41,910 nucleotides of DNA from Folioceros fuciformis (lineage: Eukaryota). The notes beneath the pieces were generated by a model that saw only the letters and a list, made by a program, of their open reading frames with translations, searched no databases and was not told the DNA's origin. How positions within the stretch are numbered: the first letter of the stretch is position 1; each line of letters begins with the position of its first letter. Made by a program: the position numbers and the translations under genes. The stretch covers positions 1-41,910 of the forward strand of contig JBNGIO010004074.1 of the NCBI GenBank assembly GCA_049999805.1, given 5' to 3'. Shown here piece after piece: positions 3,687 to 27,433 of this stretch.

Positions 3687-5643
3687 ATGGCGGCTGCTTT
3701 GGGTAGGAACCGGAATGGGAACAGGAATGCGGGAGAAGATGAGGATGCGATGATGGACTTCGAGACCAGCTCGGGCGTGGATGTCATCTATAGCTTTGAC
3801 CAAATGGGGATCAAAGAGGAGCTGCTGCGGGGCATATATGCTTCTGGGTTTGAAAAGCCCTCTGCCGTCCAGCAGCGGGCTGTGATTCCCGTTATCCTTG
3901 GGAGGGATGCCGTAGCGCAGGCGCAGTCCGGGACGTGAAAGACTTTTATGATTGCGCTTGCAGTTTGTCAGATGATCGAGACAACCACTCGAGAGTCAGT
4001 TTGGACGATTGGATGCCTGTCTGTGGGTTGCAGATACGGATCTGCCAGAGAATGACTTTTTAGTTTGAGTACAAATCAAGGCTAAAAGGTGTCCGTGTAG
4101 GGTGCAAGCCCTAATCCTGTCTTCAACCAGACGGAGAAGGTGATTCTGGCCATCGGTGATTATATGAAAGGTCAAGCCCATGCTTGTATTGGTGGTACAA
4201 GTATCGGGGAGCACATAAGGAAGCTGGAGTGTGGGGTGCACGCGGTTTCAGGAACACCAGGAAGGGTCTATGATATGATTAAGAGGAGAACTCTGAGAAG
4301 CAGGTCTATAAAGCTGCTTATCCTGGCATGCAAGTTTCACAGCTGATGTTTCCATATGCCTCACATATCTCGTTTCACACTTTGCTGACGTTTGTGACAC
4401 TTGCAGGATGAATCTGATGAAATGCTGAGCAGGCCTTTCAAGGACCAGATTTATGATGTGTACCGATATAGGACCTTCAGGCGTGAGTGAACCCTGGCTG
4501 GGGTTTATTCTTATTTTCCCCCGTTGTCGGAAAGGAAAACTCTGTAGACTTCAGTGTGACTTTGCTAACGGGTTGTGCGTTCCAGGTGGTGCTAGTCTCT
4601 GCTACTTTACCTCATGAAATACTGGAGATGACAAACAAATTCATGACGGATCCAGTTCGAATCCTTGTGAAGCGTGACGAGCTCTCACTTGAGGTCTGAT
4701 ACCCTTTTCTTTGGGTTTTGTCTGTACGTTTGCATCGTTGTCATCTAGAGAGGGATTCATACCTATAAGAGGGCTCAAATAAAGATGCACACTCGATATC
4801 CGTGTCCTGGATGCCCAATTATCAGGAAGGCAGATGGAGGTCAGTATGCTACTTGTGACTGAAGGAATGGGTATATTGAGGCACTGGAGCGTGAGGAATG
4901 GAAACTTGATACATTGTGTGACCTCTATGACACTCTTATCATAACATGGGCTGTTATTTTTTGCAACACAGAAAGAAAGGTTGGTTAATAACGTGGAACT
5001 CTTCTCGTTCCTTCTCAGTTGTCTCCTTGCGGTACTCATAGTTTGAGTTTGTGCATTTCAGGTCGATTGGTTGACAGAGAAGATGAGGAGCAACAGCGTC
5101 ACTGTCTCTTCCATATATGGGGATATGCCACAGAAGAACGGGATGCTATCATGGCTGAATTTCGATCAAGCAATACCCGTGTGTTAATCACCACAGATGT
5201 ATGGGCTCGTGGCCTTGATGTTCAGCAGGTCAGTTTGTGCGACTTGGTGAAGTTCATGCGTAGTTGTAATAGCCGCTGCTGTTTCTCCATTGTTTCTCGT
5301 GGCTCAACATGTTGCGTTCTTCAACTGACTCTGTTTTTGCAAAAATAGGTTTCACTTGTTATCAACTACGACCTAACAAACAATTGTGAGCTTTACATCC
5401 ATGGAATTGGGCGATCAGGTCGTTTTGGTCGCAAGGTACTGTTTAGTCTTTTTTTTGGTCAGATGTGCTGCTCTGTTGGCAAAACAGACCTGTTCAAGGG
5501 GAGGTTTGACACAAGTACTCGTGGTGTAGGGTGTTGCCATTACTTTTGTGCGGAGCAATGACGTAAGGATTCTTCGTGATATTGAGCAGTACTGCAGAAC
5601 TCAAATAGATGAGGGGCCTGTAAATGTGGCTGACCTCACCTAG
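3687..5643 (+). pseudogene. EIF4A3: eIF4A-III (exon-junction-complex DEAD-box helicase) unprocessed pseudogene
   Basis: Exons give [74 protein letters not shown] and end NVADLT* at 5641-5643. Lesions: TGA 3936-3938 in Walker A, frameshift deletions near 4130, 4470 and 5137, a lost exon start near 4885, HRIGR->HGIGR. Introns retained. Confidence 0.92.
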
Positions 5644-6084
5644 GTTGTGTCCTGGAGTAAATCTACGGAACATTCAGCTGTGAGGGACGGATGCTGTCGT
5701 GGTACCTCGTTCGGTTCCAGGACTTTGGAGAGCCACCTTTTTCGGAGCCGAGGCTTTAAGAGGCGAAGTTTGCGGCGGAATGGTACTCCAATTTTGGTCT
5801 GAAGGACGCATCCACGGAATTCATGTACATTAGTCGATCGGTTCACTGTGCTGATAAGCTTCAAGCATTTTAGCGCAGATGTTCATGGCATTTTGATCAA
5901 TCGGTTTCTGAAATTTGTATGGCTTGACATCCGGTAGGAGCTGGGCGATGTTTTCGAATGTCTTGTTTGGAGCCCTGTTGTACTCACGGTGAGAAATCTG
6001 AGCTCAGTACGAGCATGTGTGCATGCGTCACGAACATTCTCGACAGGAAAAGGTGAAGACACTGACGTGAGCCTCGTTTAACTA

Positions 6085-9000
6085 TCATTGATGATCTCCG
6101 CAGGAACACAGGCCATCCTTAAAATGATGCACTCGGTGTGCGTCCCTAACAACTATCTCCCGCTTTTCAATCTTGGAGATAATCTTCGTTCCCGTGTGAC
6201 AGTGCTCGCACATGCGGAGGTTCTTTGTGACAACTAAAGTTGAGCCTTCCGCTGTATTGAGGAGACCAAACGCCAGTGCTAGCTTCTCGGCATGTGCACA
6301 CAGGCTAACGCCCTGCGACTCATGCGACAATTGCCCTGAGGAGTGGGGCAAATTTTCAGTTTCCCGTGTCTCTGCGTTCAGTTTCTTTAGCTTGACCGAA
6401 GTATCTTCCCGCTCCTGCCCTACAATGAACGCCTGTACTGTGTTCTGTACTTCAATCAAAGCTTCTGCCGACTTTCTCGAGACTCCCGCTTTGCCTCTCA
6501 TGGTTTGTATATCCTGTACACTTTCGAACCTTCCAGCGTCACTGTATATTCTGGACATGAGAACATATGCAGCAGGTTGTTCTGGATCAACCTTAACAAT
6601 TTGCTCAAAACATCGACGGCCCCTCTCAACATCAGCATATGATTTGCAGGCACTTAGTAGCGACATCCAACCCACATTGCATGTCTCAAAGGGCATGGTT
6701 TGCAACAAGTTCTCTGCCTCATCCAAGTGTCCCGATCGACCAAGAAGATCAACCATACATGTATAGTGCTCGATTGTTGGAGCAGTACCAAGATCTTCTT
6801 CTATCATCTGGAAGTATCGCCAACCCTCATTCACAAGGCCCAGGTGACTGCACGCGACGAGAAGTGAGGTGAAAGTTGCAGCATCGGGCTCCACTCCGTG
6901 TAGTTTCATATTCTCGAAACACTCAACGGCCATTTTTTGGTCATTATGATGACCATAGCCATTGATAAGTGCGGTCCATGTCACCACATTCTTCGTCGGC
7001 AATCTCATAAACACCAGCACCGCATCCGTAGGGCTCCCACATTTCACGTACATGTCTATTAACGCACTTCCCACGCGCACATCTTCTTCGAGACCCCTTT
7101 CCAGAACCTGCATATGGACTCGCTTGCCTTTCTGGATGGCTCCTGAAAAGCCACAGGCTCTTAAAATGGACACGAAAGTACCCTCATCAGGGGTGCCATG
7201 ATCCAGTTGCATTGCCTCATAAAGATGAATTGATTCTGTACCAAGCCCATGCTGAGCGTAACCTGAAAGCATGGCATTCCATGTCACCCTATCTTTAGTC
7301 AGCAGTCTATCAAATATTCTGCGCGCATCCTCGAGGCTCCCACATTTTGCATACATGTCCACCAGAGTATTTCCGACAATCGCATCAGTTTCCAGGTCCA
7401 AGTCCAAAGCTTGGGAGTGGATCTGTCTACCCTCGTGAATCGAACCTACGCTACTGCAAGCTTTCAGAACACAGGCAAGAGTGACATTGTTCACTGGCCA
7501 TAGACCCTCCTGTTGCATCGTTGCATAAAGTTTGAGAGCTTCATGACCAATTCCAGACTGGCTGTATGCAGCGATTATACTACACCAGGCCACCACATCT
7601 CTATTTGGGAGTCTGTCAAACACCGTGCGAGCATCTTCGAGGCTGCCAGACTTACTGTACATGTCCACCAGGGCACTGCCAACTAAAGGATCTTTTTCCA
7701 GATCCCTCTCCAGGACACGTGTGTGAACGTGTTTGCCCTCCTGTAGAGCTCCTAGGAAACCACACGCTTTCAAGGCACCAAGAAAAATGACTTGGTTAAA
7801 TAGGCTGTCGTCCTGTGGTATGATGGCAAAAAGATCCAGGGCTTCCTGTGCAAGTTCATGCTGAGCATACCCCCAGATCATGGCACTCCATGTCACCACA
7901 TCTCTGGTTGGCAATCTGTCAAACAGATTGCGAGCAGTCTTCAGGCTGCCACATTTGGCATACATATCCACCAAGGAGCTTCCCAGGATGACATCAAATT
8001 CTAGTCCTGCTTTGCATATTTGAGAATGCACCCGCTTGCCCTCTAATATATCCCGCAGGCTGGCACATGCTTTCAGAATGCTCACAAAGGTCACTTTGTC
8101 TGGTGCTAAGCCATCATCTTGCATGGCAGAGTAAAGGTTAAGGGCTTCTTCACCCAACCCACATTTAGCATAGCCTTCTATCATAACACTCCATGTTATC
8201 ACATCTTTTTTTGACGACGCGTCAAAGACCTTCCGAGCTTCTGCAATGCATTCACACTTTACATACATGTCCAAGAGGGTGTTTTTGACAAAGACGTTAG
8301 ATTCAAACCCACCTTCCACGACATCTGCATGGATTACCTTGCCAGATGCCAAGTCCTTCAAATGGGAACATGCTCTAAGGACAGCGACAAAGATATAATC
8401 ATTCGGTTTTGCATCAGACTTTCGCATCTGGTGGTAAAGCTCGATAGCTTGCACACCATGTCCATGCTCACAATGCGCAGATATGATTGAAGCCCACATG
8501 AAAGCATCTGGTGCGGGCACTTTCCAAAAAACTCTCTGTGCATCCTCCAAAGATCCACAAGAAGCATACATCCGGATAACATGATTCGCAAGAAACCTGT
8601 CCAACGCGTAACCGATGTTTACTGCAAGTTCATGCACACTCCTCCCCACTTTAAGATCATGCATCGCAATGCACCCCTTCAGTAGACGGTACACCCTATC
8701 TCTGGATATGTACACCCCAAGGTGAGCCATGATGTGCGTCCCTTGAAATGCCTCGTCGACCTTGCCCTCTTCACAGAGCTTGTCCAACTGTTCAAGATCA
8801 GTTGAAACTTCCCTGAATACCAAGCTGAGCAGTTTGCAGGACAGTCAGAAAACTGTTGTTCCATGCATCCCAAAAAGCAATTTATTCTAAAAACTTTCCC
8901 GGGCACTACCTGCCAGCCTCCAGTCTGTTACGTCCCGGGGATTCATAAGGAGAGTCGAACGCTACACGTGGAACAATATCCTGGGATTGGGCTGATTTGG

Positions 9001-9575
9001 GAGACCAAACGGAGTTGGGGTAAGAATCAAGCGATCCGCGCTTCAATTTCCTGCTTTGCACCGAGTCCGGTTTTCTCTGCAAAGCTCATCTGGTCAGCGG
9101 GAGTGCGAACCAAGCGGAGCCTGCACACGAAACGCGTGGAAACCACACTGCTACCTCTGTTCTGATGACTTCCTGCGTGGTTGCCTTCCTCCAGACCACT
9201 GGATCCGAGAGAAAACATTCCCACAAAGGCGCCTGGCCTGCTGCAGCCAGTTGGGGTCATCAATTCAAAACGTGGAACTCACAAAGGCTCAGTTGAATCG
9301 AGACGACCGCACTCACCGGGGTTCTGGCGAACCAGCGATTCCGGGACAGCTGAGAGCCGCCTGTGGAATTCCGCCAAGGAGGGGCAGGATAAACAGGGGT
9401 TGCAGTTGCTGTCCCTCAGTCGGACAACGATTGCACATCGCCTCATCTGGTTGGCAGGCAAGCGTAAACATACCCATCGGGGGAAAAGCAGAGACGGTCG
9501 ACTCTCGAATTTTGGAGGTCTCAACTCATCAGGCCCCAGGGAAAGAACACGCGCCCTAACCTGGCAGCCAAGCAT
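6085..9575 (-). CDS. PLS-class PPR protein with E1/E2 and variant DYW deaminase domain (DYW:KP/DRH-like); organellar RNA editing factor
   Basis: 912-codon ORF of P-L-S triplets (TWSAMIWGYAQH / VTFVSILKAC / SLVDMYAKCGSL), E motifs, HAEKLA..CEHCH..CSCGDHQ. By-eye model: exons 9575 (or 9446)-9317, 9240-9155, 9076-8910, 8812-6085, joined by GT-AG introns of 76, 78 and 97 nt that keep the frame open. The 5' exons are less certain than the main exon. Confidence 0.9.
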
Positions 9576-11147
9576 TAACCGGCGGCTCTATGTTTGTTGT
9601 GTTCGACCCTGTGAAACACAGCGTCAAGAGCAAGATCGAATGCATCATTTGCTCGCATGAGCTGCCCGTTCTCAGAAGCGGGGCTGGCTGGGTACAGCCT
9701 GCGGACGTGCGCGTACAGGGTTCTGGGAATCAGCTCTGCTATCCTCGCCCGCATAGCGTCTACAGCAGGGGGTGGAATGCCTTCTAGAATGCTCAACACG
9801 TTTTCTTTGGTCACGCGTTCCATGGGAATGAAGACAGAGTACCCTTCGCCATCCTCCGGCAAATGAGAAACGTACTGCGTCCAAGCGGAGTTCTTGTTGA
9901 AGATAACCGGGATACAGCCGGCCAGCATAGAGTCGAAGAAAGAGCGTCGAGTAGGACTGTCTCCAGGAGGTTGAAGGCAGAACTGCGATCTGTGGAACAC
10001 AGACATAAGCAGGGACGGATTCCCGCAAGAAGCTTGCAGTGTTTTTCCCTCAAACCCTGGAAAAAGCTTGGTAACTCTCATATCTGCTCCGACATTGTCA
10101 CAGACAACATTGGTGCATCGAGGGTCGGATTCACACTGATGCATGACCTGCCTTCTCACACTGTCCCCGATTCTCTCCGGCCTTCCTTTGCCGGCAAAAC
10201 TAGCAAGTGAAGAACGCTGATATGACTGCCGCAGCCAGCGGACGAGATCTTCGATCTGCGAATCCGTAAAGGGATGGAAGTAGCTGGGATACGGCACAGC
10301 GAGCTCATTGTCGAACTGCGCCGTCTTGGATGTTGTCCTCTCAATTGTAAGCTTCACCATCTTCTGCCAGTCAGAGTGGAACATCATCTGCCAAAAATTC
10401 CACTGTCAGGCTCCTCACCATCTGCAAAACGAACGGCTCCCATCGGCAAGACAGGGTAGGCAAGCCCGCTGTTCAGCAGGCAGGAGGCACCTGATTTCCC
10501 CATGCGCTGCCGTCTGCCCGGCGGAAGTCCGATCCAATACGTCCCAGCACTAGGAAGTGGTCCAGGCCCCCGTTGCGCTGCCACGCCGGTTGTGGCTTGA
10601 GCCATTCCAGCAAATCCAGGTGGAGCTTGTTCCGGGGCAAGCGATGTGAGATCCTGCGCATGAGATCCAAGCCAGAGAAGAAGGGCACGAAAAAAGCGCT
10701 GGCTTCCTCCTCCCTTGATGTCAAACAGGGGTACACCTTCAAACGCTGGAAGAAGTAGAGTTCCAGAGAGAACTGCCAGGTCTTGAACCACACTTTGCTG
10801 TCACTCTGATTCAGAGTTGGCCCTCCGGCGTCAGCTCCAAACTGAAAGACGGGTCCCATTCCATCGTTCTCCATGTAAGGACAGAAATGATCGTTTCTGG
10901 GATCTGTCTTCCGCCTCAGGTTCTCACAGTCTGCAACCAGGTCCATATTGAAAACGGTAGAGATGTTGTAGACAAAAATCCATCTCCCTTTGCAAAAATC
11001 CGTGACAGACGGCTCCTTTGGAAATGTGAGTTCCGACGACACCAGCGCACGGCCTGAGCTTGGTGCGTATTGTTGCCACAGTACAAACAAGCTTATTCCC
11101 ATGGCAAGCACACCCACGAGAAATCTCATCTGAGCAGATGCAGCCAT
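9575..11147 (-). CDS. GT47/exostosin-family glycosyltransferase (MUR3/XLT2-like)
   Basis: Type-II TM anchor (FLVGVLAMGISLFVLW), CKGRWIFVY, TWQFSLELYF, AFFVPFFSGLD, GGLDHFLVLGRI, AVPYPSYFHP, FCLQPPGDSPTRRSFFDSMLAGCIPVIF. One GT-AG intron 10490-10388 joins the two ORFs in frame. Alternative start at 11201. Confidence 0.92.
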
Positions 11148-12615
11148 TCTGTGCGCGTAAACGTTGAAGCGGAAAGGTCTCCGAGCCCATCGCCCTTCCA
11201 TCCCTCACCAAAACTCTCGCCTTGAAGGCACGCAAGAAGTCGGCATAGCTGAACATGGAAGGACCTGTACTGTACCGTAGATGAGACCAAGCTATGTACA
11301 TATGTACGTACGAAGCTACGTACATATTTTTGCGACAATACCTATTTTTCCTACAATACCTACAATACATTTTTCAATACCAAGGTCGAAGTATAAAAAT
11401 ACTTATTGTGCCACAGGGGTACTCGCCTATCTGATGGCCTGACCTTCTCCAGTCCACTAAAGACGGATGGAAATGTACATATTTGGCGTATCTACTACAA
11501 AACAAAAGGAAACAAAACAAAACAAAACAGTCTCGCTGTCTGTTTGAATTCCATGGAGATCGTAGAGGAGCAAGGGTCGGGTGATTGCCTTCCCCACCCC
11601 ACTCTCGTGGGCTTCAAGCTACCATCCTGTGGTTGGAGCCAAAACAGAAGACTGCCTGAATTCTTAATCCTTGATGCTCGTCTTGTTCACCACTGGATGC
11701 ATCTGTGTATGTCGTTGTGTCCCGCACCTGTCAAACTGACTGTAAATTAGCCCCAATTCGTGTAGTGTGCTGCACACATATGTCCAATCTTTCTGGATCA
11801 ATGCTCTAGCAAACCAACACACCCATCAAGCATGTATCTACGTCTGTACGTCTGTCTCCTCCACAGCATGTTGTGCAGACGCTCACCTCGTTTGTGCAGG
11901 AGCGTGTAAGTGCGTGTTGTATCGTGAAGTTCAGAACAGACGTTTACGGTAACAATAGCACCCCAGCACGACTTTCTTCGTCTTTGGGAAGCGTAGGCTT
12001 TCTCATAATTCTGCTTCGCTTGGATGCTCCTGACTATCTGCATCTCGAAAAGGCAGGCCCACTCAAGCAGGTATACGGGCAACCATTTCCTTCACTTCAA
12101 ACCGAAGGATGGAGATAGACTCTTTTCCCCATCTACTCACCATTGTGACTCATCTCAATCATCTGCGTCCCTGCTATGGCATACCAAACAAGACACTCCC
12201 TCTCTCTACATACTTTATTGTTTTCTCACGAGGTATCTACCGGGATATCCATGCTCGATTCCCGGGAACTCGACGTCCTGTTTGGGCATCCTTACAAACC
12301 AGACAATGCACCAAAGCAGACACAACAAGCGCACGGGAGCGCACATAGCCTAACCGCAAAAGCACTGGAACGCGTTCTGCTGCCTACGTACGTGGGCACA
12401 CTGTTTCAGTGCAGTGCAAGCGGTGAATCCCCAGCTTTTTCAGCTCATACTCTGTTTTCGATGGTGCAAACTCTTACCATCATTGCGAACGCGATTGTTG
12501 GCGCTTTTCTGATTACTCATTTGTTTTCAGATCAAGATATGCACATTCAGAATCCCCACAATCACGAGGTTGCAACTCGCGCCTTCTCTGTTCACCGCAT
12601 TCTAGGCATTTGCGA

Positions 12616-18440: not shown

Positions 18441-21101
18441 TCAATTGTTGATAGCATCCAGCAGGTCACTATAAGTAACGACATCCCTGTGTTGGTCCGC
18501 TTGCCTAATTTCATCTAAAACAGCACGGGCCTCTTTCCACCGATCTGCTCTCCCTAGAACATGTATGAGAGCACTGTAAGTGACCAGACTTGGTTGAATC
18601 CCTTGGGTCTTCATGTTTTCAAACAACTTCAGGGCTGAATCCACATCCCCGTTGATTCCCTGCCCGTGAATGAGAGATGTGCAGGTAAACACATCCGCTT
18701 TCATTCCCTTCTCTTCCATTTCATAATAATATTTCCAAGCTTCGTCCAAAAGTCCTGCTTGGGCCAGTTTGTCGATGAGAGTGTTGTACGTGAAAATGTC
18801 AGGAGCAATTTCCTTTCGTTGCATCTCCTCGAAGAGCTTTCGAACTTCATCCATATCACCAGCCTTCCCATATACTCCAATGAGGGCGTTGTACGAGACC
18901 ACATCTAAGGCCACGCCGTGAGCATCCATCTCCTTCACCAGCAGCTTAACTTCATCCGCGCCAAGTAAACTGTTACCAATTGCATCAATAAGGGAGTTGT
19001 AGGTTACAAGTGTCGGAGATATACCATTTGTCTTCATCTCCTCAAACATGCTAAATGCTTTATCAATCTGACCCGCCTTGCCCAGTCCATCAATGAGAGT
19101 ATTGTACAACACTACATCTAAGAGATGACCTCCTTCCTTCATATCATCCACGAGCTGGAAAGCTTCGTCAAGCTTTCGGGCTTTAAGCAATCCCGAGATG
19201 AAGGTACTGAATAAATACGAATCGGGTGTGTGGCCCTTCTCTTGAAATTCCGCGAACACCCTTCGGGCTTGGTTCAGCTTACCCATTTTACAAAACCCAT
19301 TGATCAAAATGGTGTAACTGACCACATCAGGTTCGCAACCACTCTTCTCCATCACTCTAAACAGATTAAGAGCCTCGTCGACTCTCTTTGCCTTGCACAT
19401 CGCGTTCATAAGCGCAGTATAGACAACGGCATCAGGCACTATACCATTCTCTTCCATCTCCGTATACACCTGCTTCGCCTCGTCCATAAACCCGGCCTTG
19501 CCCAACCCATCAATCAGTATGCTGTAAGTGATCACATCCGGTGCACAACCCTGCTCCTTCATTTCCTCGAAGAGCTCTAGGGCCTGCGTTATCCTCCCTG
19601 CTTTGGACAGCGCCATCATGACAGAACTGTACACAGCTTGATCAGGTTCGCACCCGCCCCTCCTCATATCCTCGAACAGCTTTACGGCCTCATCCACCTG
19701 TCCTAACTTCCCTAGCTCACTGATAAGCACATTGTAGATGAAAGCGGTGGGCGCGAACCCATCCCCTTTCATCTCTTCAAACAACACCAAGGCACGGTTC
19801 AGTTGACAGCCACACAGCGTTTGTATCAGCAATGCGTAAGTTGAAAGCAGCGGGCGCACTTGATTCACCCTCATGTCCCGAATCAGCGAGCAGGCATCGT
19901 CCACTTTACCTGCCCCGACGAACTGCTCCAGCAAAGCTCCACATGTAGCTGAGCTCGGAAAATGCCCTTGCTCCTTCAACTCCCTCACCAGCTCGCAAGC
20001 CTCGGCCAGCTTCCCCTCCTGACTAAACCCCCGGATCAACGCATTCAAAGCATGATGGTCCGCCACCAACCCCTTCTCCCCCATCTCCTTATGGAGATCC
20101 ACCGCAGCCCTCAACTTTCCCCCCGTCACCAAAATCAATATCAAACAACTATACGCCCTCGCATCCGGCTCGCACCCGATCTCCTTCATGTAATGAAACA
20201 CCCGCACCGCCCCTTCCGGATTCCTCGCCAAGCTGTAGCTCACCATTACGGTCGTATACACAAAGACGTTCTGGAAACATCCGTCACTGTGCATTTTCTC
20301 AAACAAAACCCAGACCGCATCAAACTGCTTCGCCACTCCCAACATCTTGATCATCTTGCTGTAAGTGTACTGGTTGTGCGAAAACCCCGTCTGCTTTGCG
20401 GCCCATTTGAAGAACTCCAACGCCACCCCGGCGTCACTTAGCTGCTTCAGCACAGCCAAAACCATAAACTGATCCACCTTGAATTTCAGCCCTGAAAGCT
20501 CAGCCTCCGTTCCCTCATCCCATCCTCTGTCCAGAATCTTCCGCAGCCGCTCGACCCTCCTCTCATTCTTCATTCGCGGCCCATCCAACTTGGCCTTGAA
20601 TTTCCTCGTCCCCGAGGAAGAGCCCTCCCCCTTCCCCTCCTCCTTCCCTTCCTCCTTCTCATCCTCCCCATCCGAGTCCGAATCCGAGTCCCACGACTCA
20701 GACTCCGAGTCACCGGCCTCCCCCCGCGCGTCCGTCAGCCTGGCCGCCAAGTCCCATTCCGGAGTCCGAAGACCCGCCCGCCGCCGCCACACCTGCTCAA
20801 CTGGGTACATTTCCGCGGGGGCCGAGGGATACATCCTCTCGGTCTCCACAGCCACCAGCTCCAGCTGCGCCCCGGAGTCCGGCTCCGCGACAGGGCTGGC
20901 CTGTCTCAGACCCCCGTCGCCGGCGCGCGCCAGCCCCAGATACTTCCCGGACGCTTCTCCGCCGGCCGGCCATGGCCTAGGCCAGAGGATCCCGACTCGC
21001 CTGGGGGCCGCATGCCGGACTCCGGCCAGGCTAGTGCATAGGCTCCTGCATCCTAAACCTACGCACGATCCTTCCCCTGGCGTCAGGAAGCACATATCCA
21101 T
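18441..21101 (-). CDS. P-class pentatricopeptide repeat protein, single exon, probable organellar targeting peptide
   Basis: 886-aa ORF: transit-like N-terminus, acidic linker, ALEFFKWAAKQTGFSHNQYTY, then a long array of 35-aa repeats (PDVITYSILIDGLGKAG..). Confidence 0.95.
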   Translation of the reverse strand: MDMCFLTPGEGSCVGLGCRSLCTSLAGVRHAAPRRVGILWPRPWPAGGEASGKYLGLARAGDGGLRQASPVAEPDSGAQLELVAVETERMYPSAPAEMYPVEQVWRRRAGLRTPEWDLAARLTDARGEAGDSESESWDSDSDSDGEDEKEEGKEEGKGEGSSSGTRKFKAKLDGPRMKNERRVERLRKILDRGWDEGTEAELSGLKFKVDQFMVLAVLKQLSDAGVALEFFKWAAKQTGFSHNQYTYSKMIKMLGVAKQFDAVWVLFEKMHSDGCFQNVFVYTTVMVSYSLARNPEGAVRVFHYMKEIGCEPDARAYSCLILILVTGGKLRAAVDLHKEMGEKGLVADHHALNALIRGFSQEGKLAEACELVRELKEQGHFPSSATCGALLEQFVGAGKVDDACSLIRDMRVNQVRPLLSTYALLIQTLCGCQLNRALVLFEEMKGDGFAPTAFIYNVLISELGKLGQVDEAVKLFEDMRRGGCEPDQAVYSSVMMALSKAGRITQALELFEEMKEQGCAPDVITYSILIDGLGKAGFMDEAKQVYTEMEENGIVPDAVVYTALMNAMCKAKRVDEALNLFRVMEKSGCEPDVVSYTILINGFCKMGKLNQARRVFAEFQEKGHTPDSYLFSTFISGLLKARKLDEAFQLVDDMKEGGHLLDVVLYNTLIDGLGKAGQIDKAFSMFEEMKTNGISPTLVTYNSLIDAIGNSLLGADEVKLLVKEMDAHGVALDVVSYNALIGVYGKAGDMDEVRKLFEEMQRKEIAPDIFTYNTLIDKLAQAGLLDEAWKYYYEMEEKGMKADVFTCTSLIHGQGINGDVDSALKLFENMKTQGIQPSLVTYSALIHVLGRADRWKEARAVLDEIRQADQHRDVVTYSDLLDAINN

Positions 21102-21478
21102 CGCCAGCAGGAGAAAGCAGGACTCTCAAGCGAAAGGCCTCCAAGTCTTAATCCTCACAGCCCGCTTACCCGCGCCCCCTGCCCCGTGCTGCTTAGGACG
21201 CTCCATGTCCGACGCGCGGGATTCCGGCGTCGCATAGTTGAGGTGGAAAGGCTGGCGAGCAGGTGCCGCGCTCAAAGCGTCACCAGCTGGTGGAATGTTG
21301 CGGCGGCGTGACGGCCATGGTCACGGGAGAGCTCAGCGTGGCGGCCTCTGGGCTGCACAATTTGAGTTTTTTTATATTTGAGTTCGAGAATCGCATTAGG
21401 GAGGCAGATTGATACATTATGCATTACAACCGGAGAGAGTTCGGATGGAAGAGGGGAGAGCGAAGGGGATGGGGCTCC

Positions 21479-24358
21479 TCACACAGAGCCGTAGGTGCTG
21501 TCCGAAGTGCGAGGAATTGCTCTGACGGGGCCGGAGGATGATGATGATGAAGGACGCTCCCTCGTCAGAGCAGTGGCGTCTTCGGCTCTCGCGTAGCCTC
21601 CTCCGCTGCGGTCTTTGCTGACCTGAATCACGTAGCCCAAGGGCACAGAGACAGAGAGAGATGAGTGAGGGCCTTGCGAGGGAAGGAGGAGCGAAACGGG
21701 CTTGGTGGGGGACATGGGTTACCAGATCGAGACAGCTTGCGAGGGTTTGGATCCCTGGGAGGGCGTCCAAGCCATGCTGCAGGGACAGTTGAGAGTTAAT
21801 AATGAGGAGTAAAATATGTGAAAGCAAAACAGTGTGTTGCATTTCACCTTGTTTTCAACTCGAGTTTTGTAGCAGAAGCCGCCACAGCACCCAGCCAACG
21901 TGACAAGGAAGAAGCTGCAAGATAATAAATTTAGTGACGGAGGCGAGTCATGAGATGCTGGTAGCTTGGCAGTCAGATCACAGTGCGGAATGGATTCAAC
22001 TGGTTACTCACAAGAACGAGAGAACACCAAAGGTTGTCCATCCACTTGAGCCTGATTTCTCAGTAACTTGCTTATATTCTGCAAAATCTATTGTCAGACT
22101 TGGAGAAAGGGCATAGGATATACTGCACATCTTAAACCATCAACAAAAGCAGGTAGCGTGTATGAGCTTACGGCATCCCTTGCCCAAACTGAAGACAACA
22201 GGGTCGTAGTCCTTAACTGGAATGCTCACATTCACGACATAAGGACCCATTTGGGCTGTGCTGCCTGCAAGATCCAGAAACAATGGCCCAGTTCGCTGAA
22301 TGCACAGACCAGATTCGACCAGCCAGCCATAGAAGTAACAAAAGCTGAACGAACTATAATCAGGAAGTCCAATGCAGGGTCGTACACTGCCACTGCACTT
22401 CTAGGACGCTGGGAGACTCTGTTGTTGGGGCTGCGCCACCAGTTGCAGAGCCGGACAGCTGAACATCCAATCCCTTTTCAGGAGAAACCTGCAAACATCC
22501 AATCATACACAAAGAAGACTGACTTGTGACTTGATCTTTGGATGGATACAGCAGGGGTAATCCAGAAACCACTGCTTGAGTCACTCACACTGTAGGTCGG
22601 CTTTCCGACGTTGCTGGCAACCTCACTTCGTGCCGTCAGATACAAATATGTCCGCAATTGATCAGTGCCAAAACTGGGAGACACGCAATTGAAACTATGA
22701 ATGCTGATCGACAGTGTGTTCTCATGAGTTGCAAACAATGCGCTAGAAGGTAAACTTCTGCATCGGCTCTACCAATTACCTGTAGTCGCTACGGAATGCA
22801 TCGAATCCCCACTGCGTAATCCCATTCTCCACCTGTCAAGCACCCAGCGTGAAGAGGAGAAGAGCTTACATATTCTACCATCCCAAAAACTTCAAAATAT
22901 GGTTCAAAACTAAGGTCACAGCCCTCGGGTAACGAGCCATGCTGAAGAGGTTCCTTGAAGAGGTTCTCAGATAACTAACCACTTCCTTGCCTCTTGGGCT
23001 GAAGCCGACTGTGAAGCCACTGAAGACACGAGGTCCTGATTTAACACAGGACACGGCAATAACTGCACTTATCCTGTCTCCGAAAGAACGTGCTTGTCAT
23101 GTCAGAATATCCCCTGACTGACAGAACGTAGCAAAGGGGAGCACACCAAATCCAAGGAACCCACATGCAACTCGAGGAATCCAAGCTGACACTGCAGATG
23201 CATCCATGTTCATCTGCCATTGCACAGCACAACGCATAAGGTTCCTTTCATACAGTGATGGAACAAATGCCAGACACGTTCAACAGTCCACCACCTCTGC
23301 AACTGATCGATCCTGGGCAGCTTCCACAAATAATAGCTACCTGAGAGCATTAAGTCAGCTGGTCAGATTCAGCTGCGTGTCGTCACACCCATGCATCTGA
23401 AAGATGGCTTCTAACTGGCTTGCCAATTACCTCAGCAGAACGGCCACTCATATCAAAACCTTCAGTTTCACAACCTTTCAAATCCCCATACCGATACTCC
23501 TGCACCATGCATGAGATGAGATGAATAGGAGGAGGAAGGGTGGGGTATCCTACACATACGTCAGACACCTGCAAACTTGGCATTTTAACAAACACGGACA
23601 AGGCTGAAAGCAAATACAACGATCAATGTCGAGGAATTCCGCAGTTTATTGTTGGTGAGCTCTCAGATACTCACTCACTTGAACAAAATCGACTCCACTG
23701 CTAGTGCTTGGTTGGAAAGCTGAGAAACGGCCATAATTGGTGTAGGCCTAATCTCAAGACAGCAACTCACAAGTTAGAACGGATATAACCTAACTCTTCC
23801 GCAAGTGCAATCAACTGGTAATACTTTTAACCAAAGGCTTGGCATGCTTCAAAAAAGGTCAAGAGCAATGAGAAGGATTCCAAACTAAGCGCACGAGCAT
23901 ACCGAATCTGAAGACCTCTTCTGGAAGTCTTTGCAGAAACGAATGGTGTACGTGGAGCTCTGTGCAAGGAGGAATAAGGATGGGAAACATCTTAGACGAA
24001 TGAAAAAACCATAGAAACAAGCTCTGTGAACCGCAATGCTTACTTACTTCTTGATCATAGTTGAAGTCCTTCCCTACCCAACTTGTCTGCCCTAGAGGTT
24101 AAGGATAAAATCGCAAAACACTGCGGCCTCATGCAACCCTGCTCGATGGCAGCTCTCTCAGATTTGGTACAAGGATACGAAGTCGTACAGATGATTGTCC
24201 TTACTCAAAGAGTAACAATTCGATGCAGGTAAGGTAAAAGCTTCCACAACAAAAGATGGCGCAATAAGCGTGAGCGCTGCAAAGAGAAGAGCAGAGACCA
24301 CGACCCCGCTCCGCCCAGTGGCCACAGCTCCGCTATCATCGCTTGACCAGGGCGCCAT
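21479..24358 (-). CDS. Conserved plant type-I membrane protein (AT4G36440-like; Cys-rich luminal domain), many short exons
   Basis: Signal peptide; PASNCYSL..LYDF, TIRFCKDFQKR, YGDLKGCE..GRSA, GCICSV, GPRVFSGFTVGFSPR, NGITQWGF, LYLTA..VGKP, VSPEKGLDV, TM then CCGGFCYKTRVE, HGLDALPG, C-terminal TYGSV*. Homology is recalled from memory. Confidence 0.8.
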
Positions 24359-25048: not shown

Positions 25049-25504
25049 TTACAGCCGACGACCTCTGCGTCCTCCCTTCCTCCTCGTGCTGTCAGTGGGA
25101 ATAGGCGTGACATCTTCAATACGGCCAACTTTCATCCCGGAGCGGGCAAGCGCGCGCAGCGCTGACTGAGCCCCGGGTCCAGGAGTCTTAGTCTTGTTCC
25201 CGCCGGTGGCCCTAAGCTTAATGTGCAGGGCTGAGATTCCCAGCTCCTTGCACCTCTGCGCCACGTCCTGCGCCGCCAGCATGGCTGCGTAGGGGGACGC
25301 CTCGTCCCTATCCGCCTTCACCTTCATCCCACCGGTCACCCGCGCGATGGTCTCCTTCCCTGACAGATCAGTGACATGCACAAAGGTGTCGTTGAAGGAG
25401 GCGAAGATGTGTGCCACTCCGAACACAAGCTCCCCTTCCCTCACAGTCGGCCCCAGCGTCACGTTCTCTTCCTTCGCCTCGCGCACCTTCTTCTTTCCAG
25501 ACAT
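25049..25504 (-). CDS. RPS14: 40S ribosomal protein S14 (uS11), intronless CDS
   Basis: [64 protein letters not shown] at 25504. Confidence 0.98.
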
Positions 25505-25624
25505 GGCGACCACTTGCCTCCTCCCGCAGCTGATTAGCTTCCTCCCGACTCAAAGTCTCCGGCCACGGCGAGGAGAAGAGGCGTGAGGGCTGCGATCTTC
25601 GTCTATGTACTGAAAGGCTCGTTA

Positions 25625-25632: not shown

Positions 25633-26095
25633 GTGCAACCTTATGTAAGAAACTGAGACGGAAAAGGTGCCCGACAAAAAATATAAAGGGGCTACGTTAC
25701 TGATATGTACAAATGTACACATGTATGTTGTCCGATTGGGGAAAAACGAGATAAAGAGGGAAGGAAACGAAACGAACCTCTTGGTCTCAAGGTATTACTT
25801 GCTCGCTGACAGTAATGACACCCACCTGCCTATGATCTCAATATCGGCCTCGGTAGGTTTTAAGCCAGGAGGGAGCTTGCCCGATCAATAATATATGTAG
25901 GTACTGGAGGCGTGGAGAAGAGCAGACGAACGTCCACACAGTCCCTCGAAAGACATGGACGGACTTGCTGTGTTTTGCATACTACGGTGTATCGGGGCAT
26001 GTGTTCCGCAGAGTCGCAACATGATCAGACTGTGACTGGAAGGTGTCCGAAATTCTTCGAGGCTGTGTGTCAAGGTGATTGGAGGAGGAAGGACC

Positions 26096-27433
26096 ATGGA
26101 ATCCGATGAAGAGTATGCTTTTCAGCTTCAGATCATAGAAACCATACACGCATCCACGAACCAATCAGGTGCTGCTTCGTCAAATCCTGTTCGACTCGCC
26201 AGTGTTGTATATGCGGGTGTACCTTCAACCCTATTTGAAGTACCAGCATCAGGAGCTTCAGTCCGATTTCCTGCAGTACCAGCAGCAATACCAGTATCGA
26301 GGAGAAGCGGGAAGGGAGTTGCGCAGGAGCACCGAAAGGAAGTTGCAAAGAAGGAGCGGAAGGTAGTTGCAGAGGAAGTCCGGGAGGGAGGTGCAGAGGA
26401 TGTCTGGAAGGGAGTTCCAGAGGAAGTCCGGGGTGGAGATGCAGAGGATGTCTCGGAGGGAGTTGCACAGAAGGCTTCGGGCAGTGACAGGGGAAGGAGG
26501 AGAAGCGGAAGAGGCAAGGAGAAAAGAGCCAGAGAATTGGAGGATCCAGGGACGGAATTAGAGTGGGGAAATAGGGAATCGAAGAGCAGTTCGAGGGAGA
26601 GGAGATCCATTGGAAGGGGGAAGGAACCAGTTGCAGAAGGAGGGAAGGAGGCGCTTGTCCCGAGTCGGAGGACTTGCGAAATTTGCATGCAGGTCAGGTC
26701 GGGTTCGAAATTTCGTGGTGCAAGAGGTTGTGACCATACTTTCTGCGTAGACTGTATGAGCCGACATGTGGAAGCGAGAGTGAACGATGGACAGGGTCCT
26801 GTGAGGTGCCCGGAGCCAGAGTGCGCGGGAGTCATCGGAAGTTTGGAGTGCGGAAGCCTGAGATGTTCGAAGAACACTGTTGAAAACCTGGAGAGGCTTG
26901 AGGTTTTGTCTTGCATCCCGGAAGCTGAGAGATTCTACTGCCCGTTCCGCGACTGCTCGGCTATGATGTGCCAGCCGCGTACGAGTAGCAGTACCTCCCA
27001 CTCCTCCACGCAGAGTCGGATAACATCGGTGGAATGTTTCAGCTGCAATAGGCTGTTTTGTGCTGAGTGCAAAGTGCCGTGGCACGCGGATCTGACCTGC
27101 AAGAAGTTCCAGCGACTTGTACAGGGGGAGTCTGTTGATGCGATTGATGCGCAGTTCCGCAAGCTAGTGACGGCTAAGAAGTGGAGAGAGTGCCCGAATT
27201 GCATGTTCGTAATCGAGCTCAGCGAAGGGTGCATCCACATGACCTGCAGGTAACTTCGATTTCACACAGCCACTTCCCTGTAAGCATGTAACCGGATGCT
27301 GACTCCGGAAGGTCCACCTCGGTATGTCAGGTGTGGGTATCAGTTTTGCTACGTATGTGGACGGAAATGGGAGAGCCGTGTCTGCTCTTGTGTGGGGGAC
27401 GCTCCCATGGGGATACCGGTCCGATGGCGTTGA
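26096..27433 (+). CDS. RBR (RING-IBR-RING) E3 ubiquitin ligase, 2 exons
   Basis: DEEYAFQLQ, RING1 CEIC..CDHTFCVDC..CPEPEC, IBR YCPFRDC..CFSCNRLFCAECKVPWH, RING2 CPNC..EGCIHMTCR/CGYQFCYVCGRKW; intron 27250-27330. Confidence 0.93.
26369..26467 (+). repeat. Coding 48-bp tandem duplication in the RBR N-terminal linker
   Basis: AEEVREGGAEDVWKGV / PEEVRGGDAEDVSEGV, with a weaker 24-bp sub-period extending upstream. Confidence 0.8.

Follow-up and report, generated by a model that had tools for sequence, protein, structure and literature searches.

The closest described relatives of the gene reported here are pentatricopeptide repeat (PPR) proteins that end in a DYW-type deaminase-like domain. We took our class definitions from PMC9478123, PMC11845758 and PMC11332814. 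In these sources, the DYW:PG class occurs in all land plants, carries out C-to-U editing, and is marked by a PG box, a serine after the zinc-binding histidine (HSE), an xHP motif and the DYW end itself (PMC11845758, PMC9478123, PMC11332814). The DYW:KP class, found in hornworts, lycophytes and ferns and linked to U-to-C editing, has a KP box, alanine or cysteine after the zinc histidine, a variable end and, mostly, no xHP (PMC11845758, PMC9478123, PMC11332814); its domain is 132-133 residues long versus 136, the xHP being missing (PMC9478123, PMC11845758). DRH and GRP are the hornwort types of KP, and the designer domains KP1, KP2 and KP3 were built on these variants (PMC9478123). Here we examine a window of 41,910 nucleotides from Folioceros fuciformis (the stretch analysed, positions 1 to 41,910 of contig JBNGIO010004074.1, assembly GCA_049999805.1), in which a single 912-codon open frame on the minus strand (6085..8823) encodes a PPR tract followed by a deaminase-like domain. 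The locus is probably a nuclear land-plant gene whose product, a PLS-class PPR protein, belongs to the DYW:KP subfamily and would serve as a site-specific RNA-editing factor in organelles, of the sort assigned to U-to-C editing.

A probable DYW:KP-type domain at the C-terminus

The protein ends in CSCGDHQ, with the TGA stop at 6085-6087 (-). Pfam places a DYW_deaminase domain (PF14432, E = 8.6e-31) at residues 831-911, and a six-frame scan with custom DYW profiles found it to be the sole DYW domain in the window. Below, residues are numbered from the K of 'KS' (position 1) and counted over 50 further HAE-type domains. The features of the domain are as follows.

6088..6474 (-): DYW:KP-type deaminase-like domain, 129 residues, beginning with the K of 'KS' (Pfam, profiles, AlphaFold2 model)
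6298..6417 (-): gating segment, VG to zinc histidine, 41 residues (alignment, model)
6286..6294 (-): HAE, that is zinc histidine, KP-typical alanine and catalytic glutamate (H, A and E invariant in 50/50 other HAE-type rows)
6223..6225 (-): lysine matching Lys88 of the designer domain KP6, K84 in the domain's own count (invariant K)
6196..6210 (-): CxxCH zinc motif, CEHCH (C, C and H invariant)

The sequence-only reading of this DNA had placed a KP-type domain at 6085-6500, which is the 129-residue domain plus the end of the preceding E2 motif, since the domain itself spans 6088..6474. The strings that it quoted (RKSAEALIEV, FIVGQERED with no xHP, CAHAEKLA, TKNLRMCEHCH, RDAHRVHHF and the DHQ end) are all present in the translation, and the Pfam E-values exclude a chance match. 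What it stated of KP domains, namely their lineages, their tie to U-to-C editing and their DRH/GRP variants, largely agrees with PMC9478123 and PMC11845758.

Most of the characters that separate the two classes point to KP. The N-terminal box reads K-S-A-E-A-L-I-E-V, without PG or SW, and its A3, A5, I7 and E8 agree with 47, 44, 44 and 47 of the 50 other rows. The literal KP pair is half present, with K kept and P replaced by S; P stands in 36/50 relatives and S in 1/50, and 14/50 have no P. Because the proline is a consensus and not an invariant residue, we did not treat its replacement as excluding KP membership. Alanine follows the zinc histidine (HAE), the end is DHQ instead of DYW, there is no xHP, and the length of 129 residues is shorter still than the usual 132-133 because of the gating segment.

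When 425 candidates were scored with the domain, 91 proteins reached E <= 1e-3, and the closest of these were 50-60% identical to it. Their domains carry the strings KKPAKAxIEV, CGHAEKLA and RDAHRVH(H/R)F, and their ends include DRH, GRP, DHR, DHV, DHH, DHL and DDL; they are presumably hornwort proteins, judging by the DRH and GRP ends and not by labels. Next in rank came named fern proteins (Adiantum, Ceratopteris; CEHAE, DMF end), with PG-type domains lower. When 1.84 billion cluster representatives were searched exhaustively, 2178 matched at E <= 1e-3 and 7 at E <= 1e-30, none of them above 63% identity, and an ESM Atlas search returned only 'Streptophyta, DYW' clusters. No orthologue was found with the PPR tract, for which 6274 of the 8000 candidates scored reached E <= 1e-30 with a best identity of 48%.

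Four class profiles, built without the query, scored the domain as follows.

Hornwort-like KP (30 rows): 202.9 bits
Fern-like KP (16 rows): 166.9 bits
HCE/xHP-retaining type (23 rows): 152.6 bits
PG (144 rows): 142.2 bits

Seven control rows of known class each scored highest on their own class, a generous control in that these rows belong to their own profiles. In a first tree of 114 domains, comprising all 77 non-HSE rows and 37 HSE rows (17 chosen and 20 random, with about 140 further HSE rows left out), the PG side (37 rows) separated from the KP-like side (77 rows) with full support in the SH-like approximate likelihood ratio test (SH-aLRT 100). All DRH and GRP rows fell with the query in a 32-row group (SH-aLRT 92), in which P0329 was the query's sister row (87). 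The query was again sister to P0329 (87.8), among hornwort-like rows, in a second, maximum likelihood (ML) tree of 63 rows and 141 columns (LG+G4). On the basis of motifs, profile scores and position in the free trees, we class the domain as most probably KP-type and not canonical PG-type, which supports the class proposed from the sequence.

Intactness and predicted fold

The following positions, invariant in the 54-sequence alignment and also in the 51 HAE-type rows, are kept in the query: the zinc histidine and catalytic glutamate, the lysine before NLRMC, CxxCH, the histidine and phenylalanine of HHF, and CxC. The conserved lysine sits 46 residues from the C-terminus, as it does in the 133-residue fern KP domains, which themselves agree with KP6 at all six published mutation sites; because of this shared distance we take it to be the equivalent of Lys88 in KP6, a residue essential for U-to-C editing (PMC11845758). 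With its open frame, zinc ligands, catalytic glutamate and Lys88 equivalent all in place, the gene reads as intact.

An AlphaFold2 model of the last 141 residues (mean predicted local distance difference test score, pLDDT, 82.2; predicted template modelling score, pTM, 0.75) has the fold of a DYW deaminase. Foldseek matched the model to a synthetic PPR-DYW/RNA complex (9kfx_A, E = 2.6e-15, template modelling score, TM, 0.83), to the OTP86 DYW domain in its active and inactive states (7o4f, with E = 2.0e-11 for 7o4f_A, and 7o4e), and to DYW1 (7w86). A phmmer search of the PDB returned the same three proteins as the structure search.

Gene model and expression

Two public sequencing runs carry the locus, of which X1 behaves as DNA and X3, labelled 'RNA?', as RNA. 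Five GT..AG introns in the plus-strand gene upstream (4299-4403, 4691-4824, 4977-5060, 5226-5347 and 5433-5528) are skipped by X3 contigs, and an intron of the glycosyltransferase family GT47 gene (joint 10387-10491, intron 10388-10490) is skipped by one of them; X1 contains none of these intron-skipping joints. X3 was treated as RNA solely on the ground of these GT..AG introns, which its contigs leave out and the DNA run retains. The PPR exon is fully covered by two X3 contigs (5528..7354 and 7338..8824) with 0 differing letters, and the gene is thus transcribed.

The first ATG of the 912-codon frame occurs at residue 32 or later, and the start of the frame falls midway in a degenerate P motif. 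The fit of X3 contig 7338..8824 stops at 8824, immediately after an AG (8826-8825), leaving 169 letters unplaced; another X3 contig fits 9316..9507, stopping at a GTGAGT donor (9316) with 82 more letters unplaced. As there is no ATG before residue 32 and RNA-derived contigs end exactly at the AG acceptor (8825/8824), the gene most likely has a separate 5' exon of 161 nucleotides followed by a 492-nucleotide intron, a joint that is not itself among the joints listed. When the exon from the ATG at 9477 to 9317 is joined to 8824 or to 8812, the frame stays open for 966 or 962 codons, with the sole stop at the end. An in-frame ATG at 8868 was rejected as the protein start, as a TGA is reached 7 codons on. 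The gene model is as follows.

9317..9477 (-): inferred 5' coding exon, ATG 9477-9475, 161 nucleotides, about 54 codons (X3 contig fit, GTGAGT donor)
8825..9316 (-): inferred GT..AG intron, 492 nucleotides (X3 contig ends, AG at 8826-8825)
6085..8824 (-): main coding exon with the PLS-class PPR tract, E1, E2, DYW:KP domain and stop (open frame, Pfam, X3 contigs)

Two AG acceptors lie 12 nucleotides apart at the start of the main exon (8812-8826, -), which may begin at 8824 or, with the second AG at 8814-8813, at 8812, and either choice keeps the reading frame of the inferred 5' exon. Each acceptor matches the end of a separate X3 contig, a sign of possible alternative splicing by which four codons are gained or lost.

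Within 6976-8111, word depth is 400-556 in 7260-7543 and 47-90 in 7828-8111, in DNA and RNA runs alike, and both runs contain many non-canonical 'joints' inside the PPR tract. The depth jumps and joints look like assembly cross-talk among many paralogous PLS repeats, which would imply a large PLS-PPR family in the genome.

Architecture and predicted RNA target

Pfam matched the repeat tract with PPR_2 (E = 1.5e-82), PPR (E = 5.9e-79), PPR_1 (E = 1.9e-45) and PPR_3, and placed an E_motif (PF20431, E = 1.7e-08) at residues 729-777. Motifs were parsed by fixed lengths (P 35, L 35-36, S 31-32 residues), with one 36-residue P1 motif at residue 410 corrected by eye. The parse gave six P-L-S triplets, of which the first P and L are degenerate, then P2-L2-S2, E1, E2 and the deaminase domain, which is the (P1-L1-S1)n-P2-L2-S2-E1-E2-DYW order.

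6679..8805 (-): 21 PPR motifs (fixed-length parse, Pfam)
6475..6678 (-): E1 and E2 motifs (Pfam PF20431, parse)

From the N-terminus, the fifth and last residues of the P and S motifs are ND, AN, ND, SD, SD, SN, SD, CN, ND, ND, SN and TD, with TC in S2. In the established PPR code, ND stands for U, SD and TD for G and SN for A, with AN and CN leaning weakly towards A. The predicted target, 5' to 3', would be U-(A)-n-U-G-n-G-A-n-G-(A)-n-U-U-n-A-G-n-n, then three nucleotides and the edited base, with S2 at -4.

Departures from the KP consensus

Eight positions of the domain carry residues that are rare or absent among the 50 relatives.

Position 2: S in the query, 1/50 relatives; usual P in 36
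Position 15: A in the query, 0/50; usual E in 39
Position 31: K in the query, 1/50; usual S in 31
Position 40: E in the query, 0/50; usual G in 42
Position 54: Q in the query, 1/50; usual K in 41
Position 55: G in the query, 1/50; usual E in 42
Position 60 (before the zinc histidine): A in the query, 0/50; usual G in 34, E in 13
Position 75: A in the query, 3/50; usual P in 41

The gating domain was defined on OTP86 as H837-G891 (PMC7611903). The corresponding segment from VG to the zinc histidine has 41 residues in the query versus 44-45 in most relatives, with 36-41 in 7/50. The shortening lies in the beta-finger, which is 3 residues shorter and divergent in sequence (with the rare residues E40, Q54, G55 and A60), and which is the only part of the model (residues 55-65) with pLDDT below 50. 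In the alignment, the shortened beta-finger stands out as a genuine peculiarity. A PG protein retained more than 90% of its activity after alanine changes in its gating region (PMC13324415), and the authors of the OTP86 structure suggested that KP proteins may not depend on strong autoinhibition (PMC7611903).

The sequence-only reading had proposed that the domain appears to deviate further from the consensus, naming KS for KP, the altered gating segment and the DHQ end. The gating segment does stand out, together with the alanine before the zinc histidine (0/50). The other two traits lie within the range of the family: the P position is variable, and the DHQ end, found in 0/50 other rows, is one of 32 different endings in 51 HAE-type rows, five others of which are D-H-x. 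Its further suggestion, that such an outlier would be informative on editing direction, found no support in anything that we computed, given S at the P position in 1/50 rows, 14/50 rows without P and 32 endings; in particular, nothing computed links the short finger or A60 to direction.

Substitutions that shift the direction of editing are published for KP6, where E64G, L113V and F133H favour C-to-U and D116A and I119V favour U-to-C (PMC11845758). The query has A and V at the D116A and I119V sites, V at the L113V site, A at 64 (neither E nor G) and Q at the last position (neither F nor H). The states A, V and V at the D116A, I119V and L113V sites are common in the hornwort-like group (30/50, 39/50 and 33/50), and the KP6-site states say little about the query protein in particular.

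Proposed function and alternative explanations

Being of KP type, intact and transcribed, the gene is a legitimate candidate for a U-to-C editor, and the earlier description of it as an intact candidate enzyme survives with that candidate status, by virtue of the zinc ligands, the glutamate and the Lys88 equivalent. If it is a U-to-C factor, its 21 PPR motifs would read about 20 nucleotides of one organellar transcript, with S2 at -4 from the edited base, and E1/E2 would place the C-terminal domain over the target uridine. The zinc/glutamate centre and the active-site lysine (K84; Lys88 in KP6) would then turn U to C by way of an intermediate in which lysine and base are crosslinked, a mechanism put forward for designer KP proteins. 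The short, poorly conserved beta-finger might, speculatively, go with weak or no autoinhibition.

Several observations weigh against this assignment. According to PMC11845758, no natural KP protein has demonstrated activity, all activity data coming from consensus-designed KP domains; according to PMC9478123, only 3/7 designer KP domains edited U to C, and KP6 edits C to U as well. In the query, the literal 'P' of KP is S, and its 129 residues compare with 132/133 aligned in the KP literature (PMC11845758). Removal of the beta-finger in OTP86 markedly reduced editing (PMC7611903), so a divergent finger could weaken the query enzyme. The inferred N-terminal exon has several acidic residues and no obvious transit peptide. 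Finally, in the approximately unbiased (AU) test on 63 rows, forcing the query to join the PG rows cost 27.2 log-likelihood units (delta lnL) and was not rejected (p-AU 0.152). On 114 rows the same test (p 0.731) carries no information: its long search under the constraint reached a tree that beat the one from the quick, unconstrained search by 20.4 lnL. About 140 columns fix only weakly where the PG clade joins the KP tree, and a constrained solution can simply shift that attachment next to the query. For this reason, KP membership rests on diagnostic characters and profile scores more than on the tree test. The profile and phylogeny check that had been suggested for this domain came out for KP on scores and free trees, and left the PG placement formally standing in the AU test.

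That test result is the one point in favour of an ordinary DYW:PG protein for C-to-U editing in which a few residues are unusual, a very improbable identity for a domain that lacks the PG/SW box, xHP and the DYW end and carries HAE where PG domains have HSE, that scores 60.7 bits lower on the PG profile than on the KP profile, and that falls inside the KP side in free ML trees. It is less far-fetched, if still unlikely, that the protein is KP by descent but works in vivo as a C-to-U deaminase or in both directions. KP6 works both ways in human cells and single substitutions switch its direction (PMC11845758), and the query shares V with the C-to-U-favouring set at the L113V site. However, its A and V at the D116A/I119V sites are the states that favour U-to-C, it retains the lysine needed for that reaction, and its states are typical of most of the hornwort-like group, including the GRP type behind the U-to-C-active KP2 and KP3 (PMC9478123).

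Slightly less likely again is a catalytically weak or inactive copy, either an RNA binder only or a gene starting to decay. The beta-finger, 3 residues short, is without the residues that 41-42/50 relatives keep (K54, E55, G40), its model has pLDDT below 50, deleting the finger of OTP86 markedly reduced editing (PMC7611903), and no orthologue was found (best identity 48% over the PPR tract and 60-63% in the domain). Set against this are a 912-codon open frame, intact zinc, glutamate and lysine positions throughout, the presence of the gene in RNA-derived contigs, the PG protein that kept more than 90% activity after gating-region alanine substitutions (PMC13324415), and gating segments as short or shorter in 7/50 relatives. 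The same finger could be given a different meaning: we consider it improbable, but conceivable, that the gene stands for a natural KP sub-lineage (<=129 residues, outside the DRH/GRP clades) in which the autoinhibitory finger was shortened and conserved residues were lost, giving a constitutively 'open' aminase with regulation or direction unlike that of the 132/133-residue KP domains. We favour the KP-type editing factor, probably for U-to-C, as the best explanation of the locus.

Neighbouring genes

The locus has about 50% GC, introns of 82-132 nucleotides and a gene every few kilobases, features that, like the DRH and GRP ends of the related domains, would suit a hornwort. Upstream in the window lies a multi-exon gene at 3687-5560 (+), whose five short GT..AG introns (82-132 nucleotides) are skipped by X3 and not by X1. 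Its exon translations look like a DEAD-box helicase, presumably of eIF4A type; a Pfam search with its first, 83-residue exon gave no match. One X3 contig (5528-7354) continues from the last exon and 3' end of this plus-strand gene to the 3' end of the PPR gene on the opposite strand. These two genes are convergent and their 3' ends abut or overlap, and a contig across both is not proof of a single transcript.

On the other side of the PPR-DYW gene, a two-exon gene at 9557-11187 (-) encodes an Exostosin GT47 domain (PF03016; E = 1.2e-30 in one exon and 9e-22 in the other). A second PPR gene, at 18441-21125 (-), is of P class, with an 894-residue frame (PPR_2, E = 5e-170) and without an E or DYW domain. 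Its N-terminus is acidic and serine-rich and lies in a GC-rich stretch (58% in 20001-22000), and its best named relative is Marchantia MpPPR_17 (39% identity over 63% of the query). Further along are a single-exon gene for a cytosolic ribosomal protein of the S11/uS11 family at 25049-25549 (-; PF00411, E = 1.5e-46) and, at 26036-27253 (+), a gene with IBR half-RING domains (PF01485, E = 2.5e-11) that looks like an RBR-type E3 ligase.

Comparison with known systems

To our knowledge, U-to-C RNA editing is the only transition without a characterised programmable natural enzyme. Because activity data come from designed domains only (PMC11845758), any intact, expressed natural KP gene is a usable test object, and the gene described here adds to these a naturally shortened gating segment and an unusual residue beside the zinc histidine. 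It is probably one of hundreds of such genes in its genome; Anthoceros reportedly has nearly as many full-length KP factors as U-to-C sites (PMC13263110). As such, it is an additional member of a known, very large family, and nothing that we found sets it apart functionally.

Compared with the PG domains of OTP86, DYW1 and the synthetic PPR-DYW protein (7o4e/7o4f, 7w86, 9kfx), the query shares the fold (TM 0.58-0.83, normalised to the query), HxE...CxxCH, the second zinc site and the conserved lysine. Unlike these C-to-U-catalysing domains, it replaces the PG/SW box, xHP, HSE, N-R-F-H-H-F and the DYW end, and its gating segment has 41 residues, whereas that of OTP86 has about 55. With the fern/lycophyte KP domains, represented by designer KP6, the most thoroughly studied U-to-C/C-to-U enzyme, it has in common the subfamily characters, the active-site lysine and the numbering from the C-terminus. 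The fern domains differ in having C-E-H-A-E, R-D-(D/N)-C-C-(I/V)-H-H-F, a D-M-F end and 133 residues; on the fern profile, the query falls 36 bits short of its hornwort-like KP score, and it lies outside the fern clade (SH-aLRT 97).

The closest match is to the hornwort-type KP proteins (DRH/GRP), with which the query shares the PLS-E1-E2 architecture, the K-x-A-x-A-x-IEV box, the absence of xHP, HAE after a small residue, T-K-N-L-R-M-C, R-D-A-H-R-V-H, C-S-C and a non-DYW end, as well as its top profile score and the 32-row tree group. It differs from them in belonging to neither the DRH nor the GRP subclade, in its DHQ end, in having S in place of P and, before the zinc histidine, A in place of G, and in a gating segment of 41 versus 44-45 residues with a divergent beta-finger, the nearest domain being only 60-63% identical.

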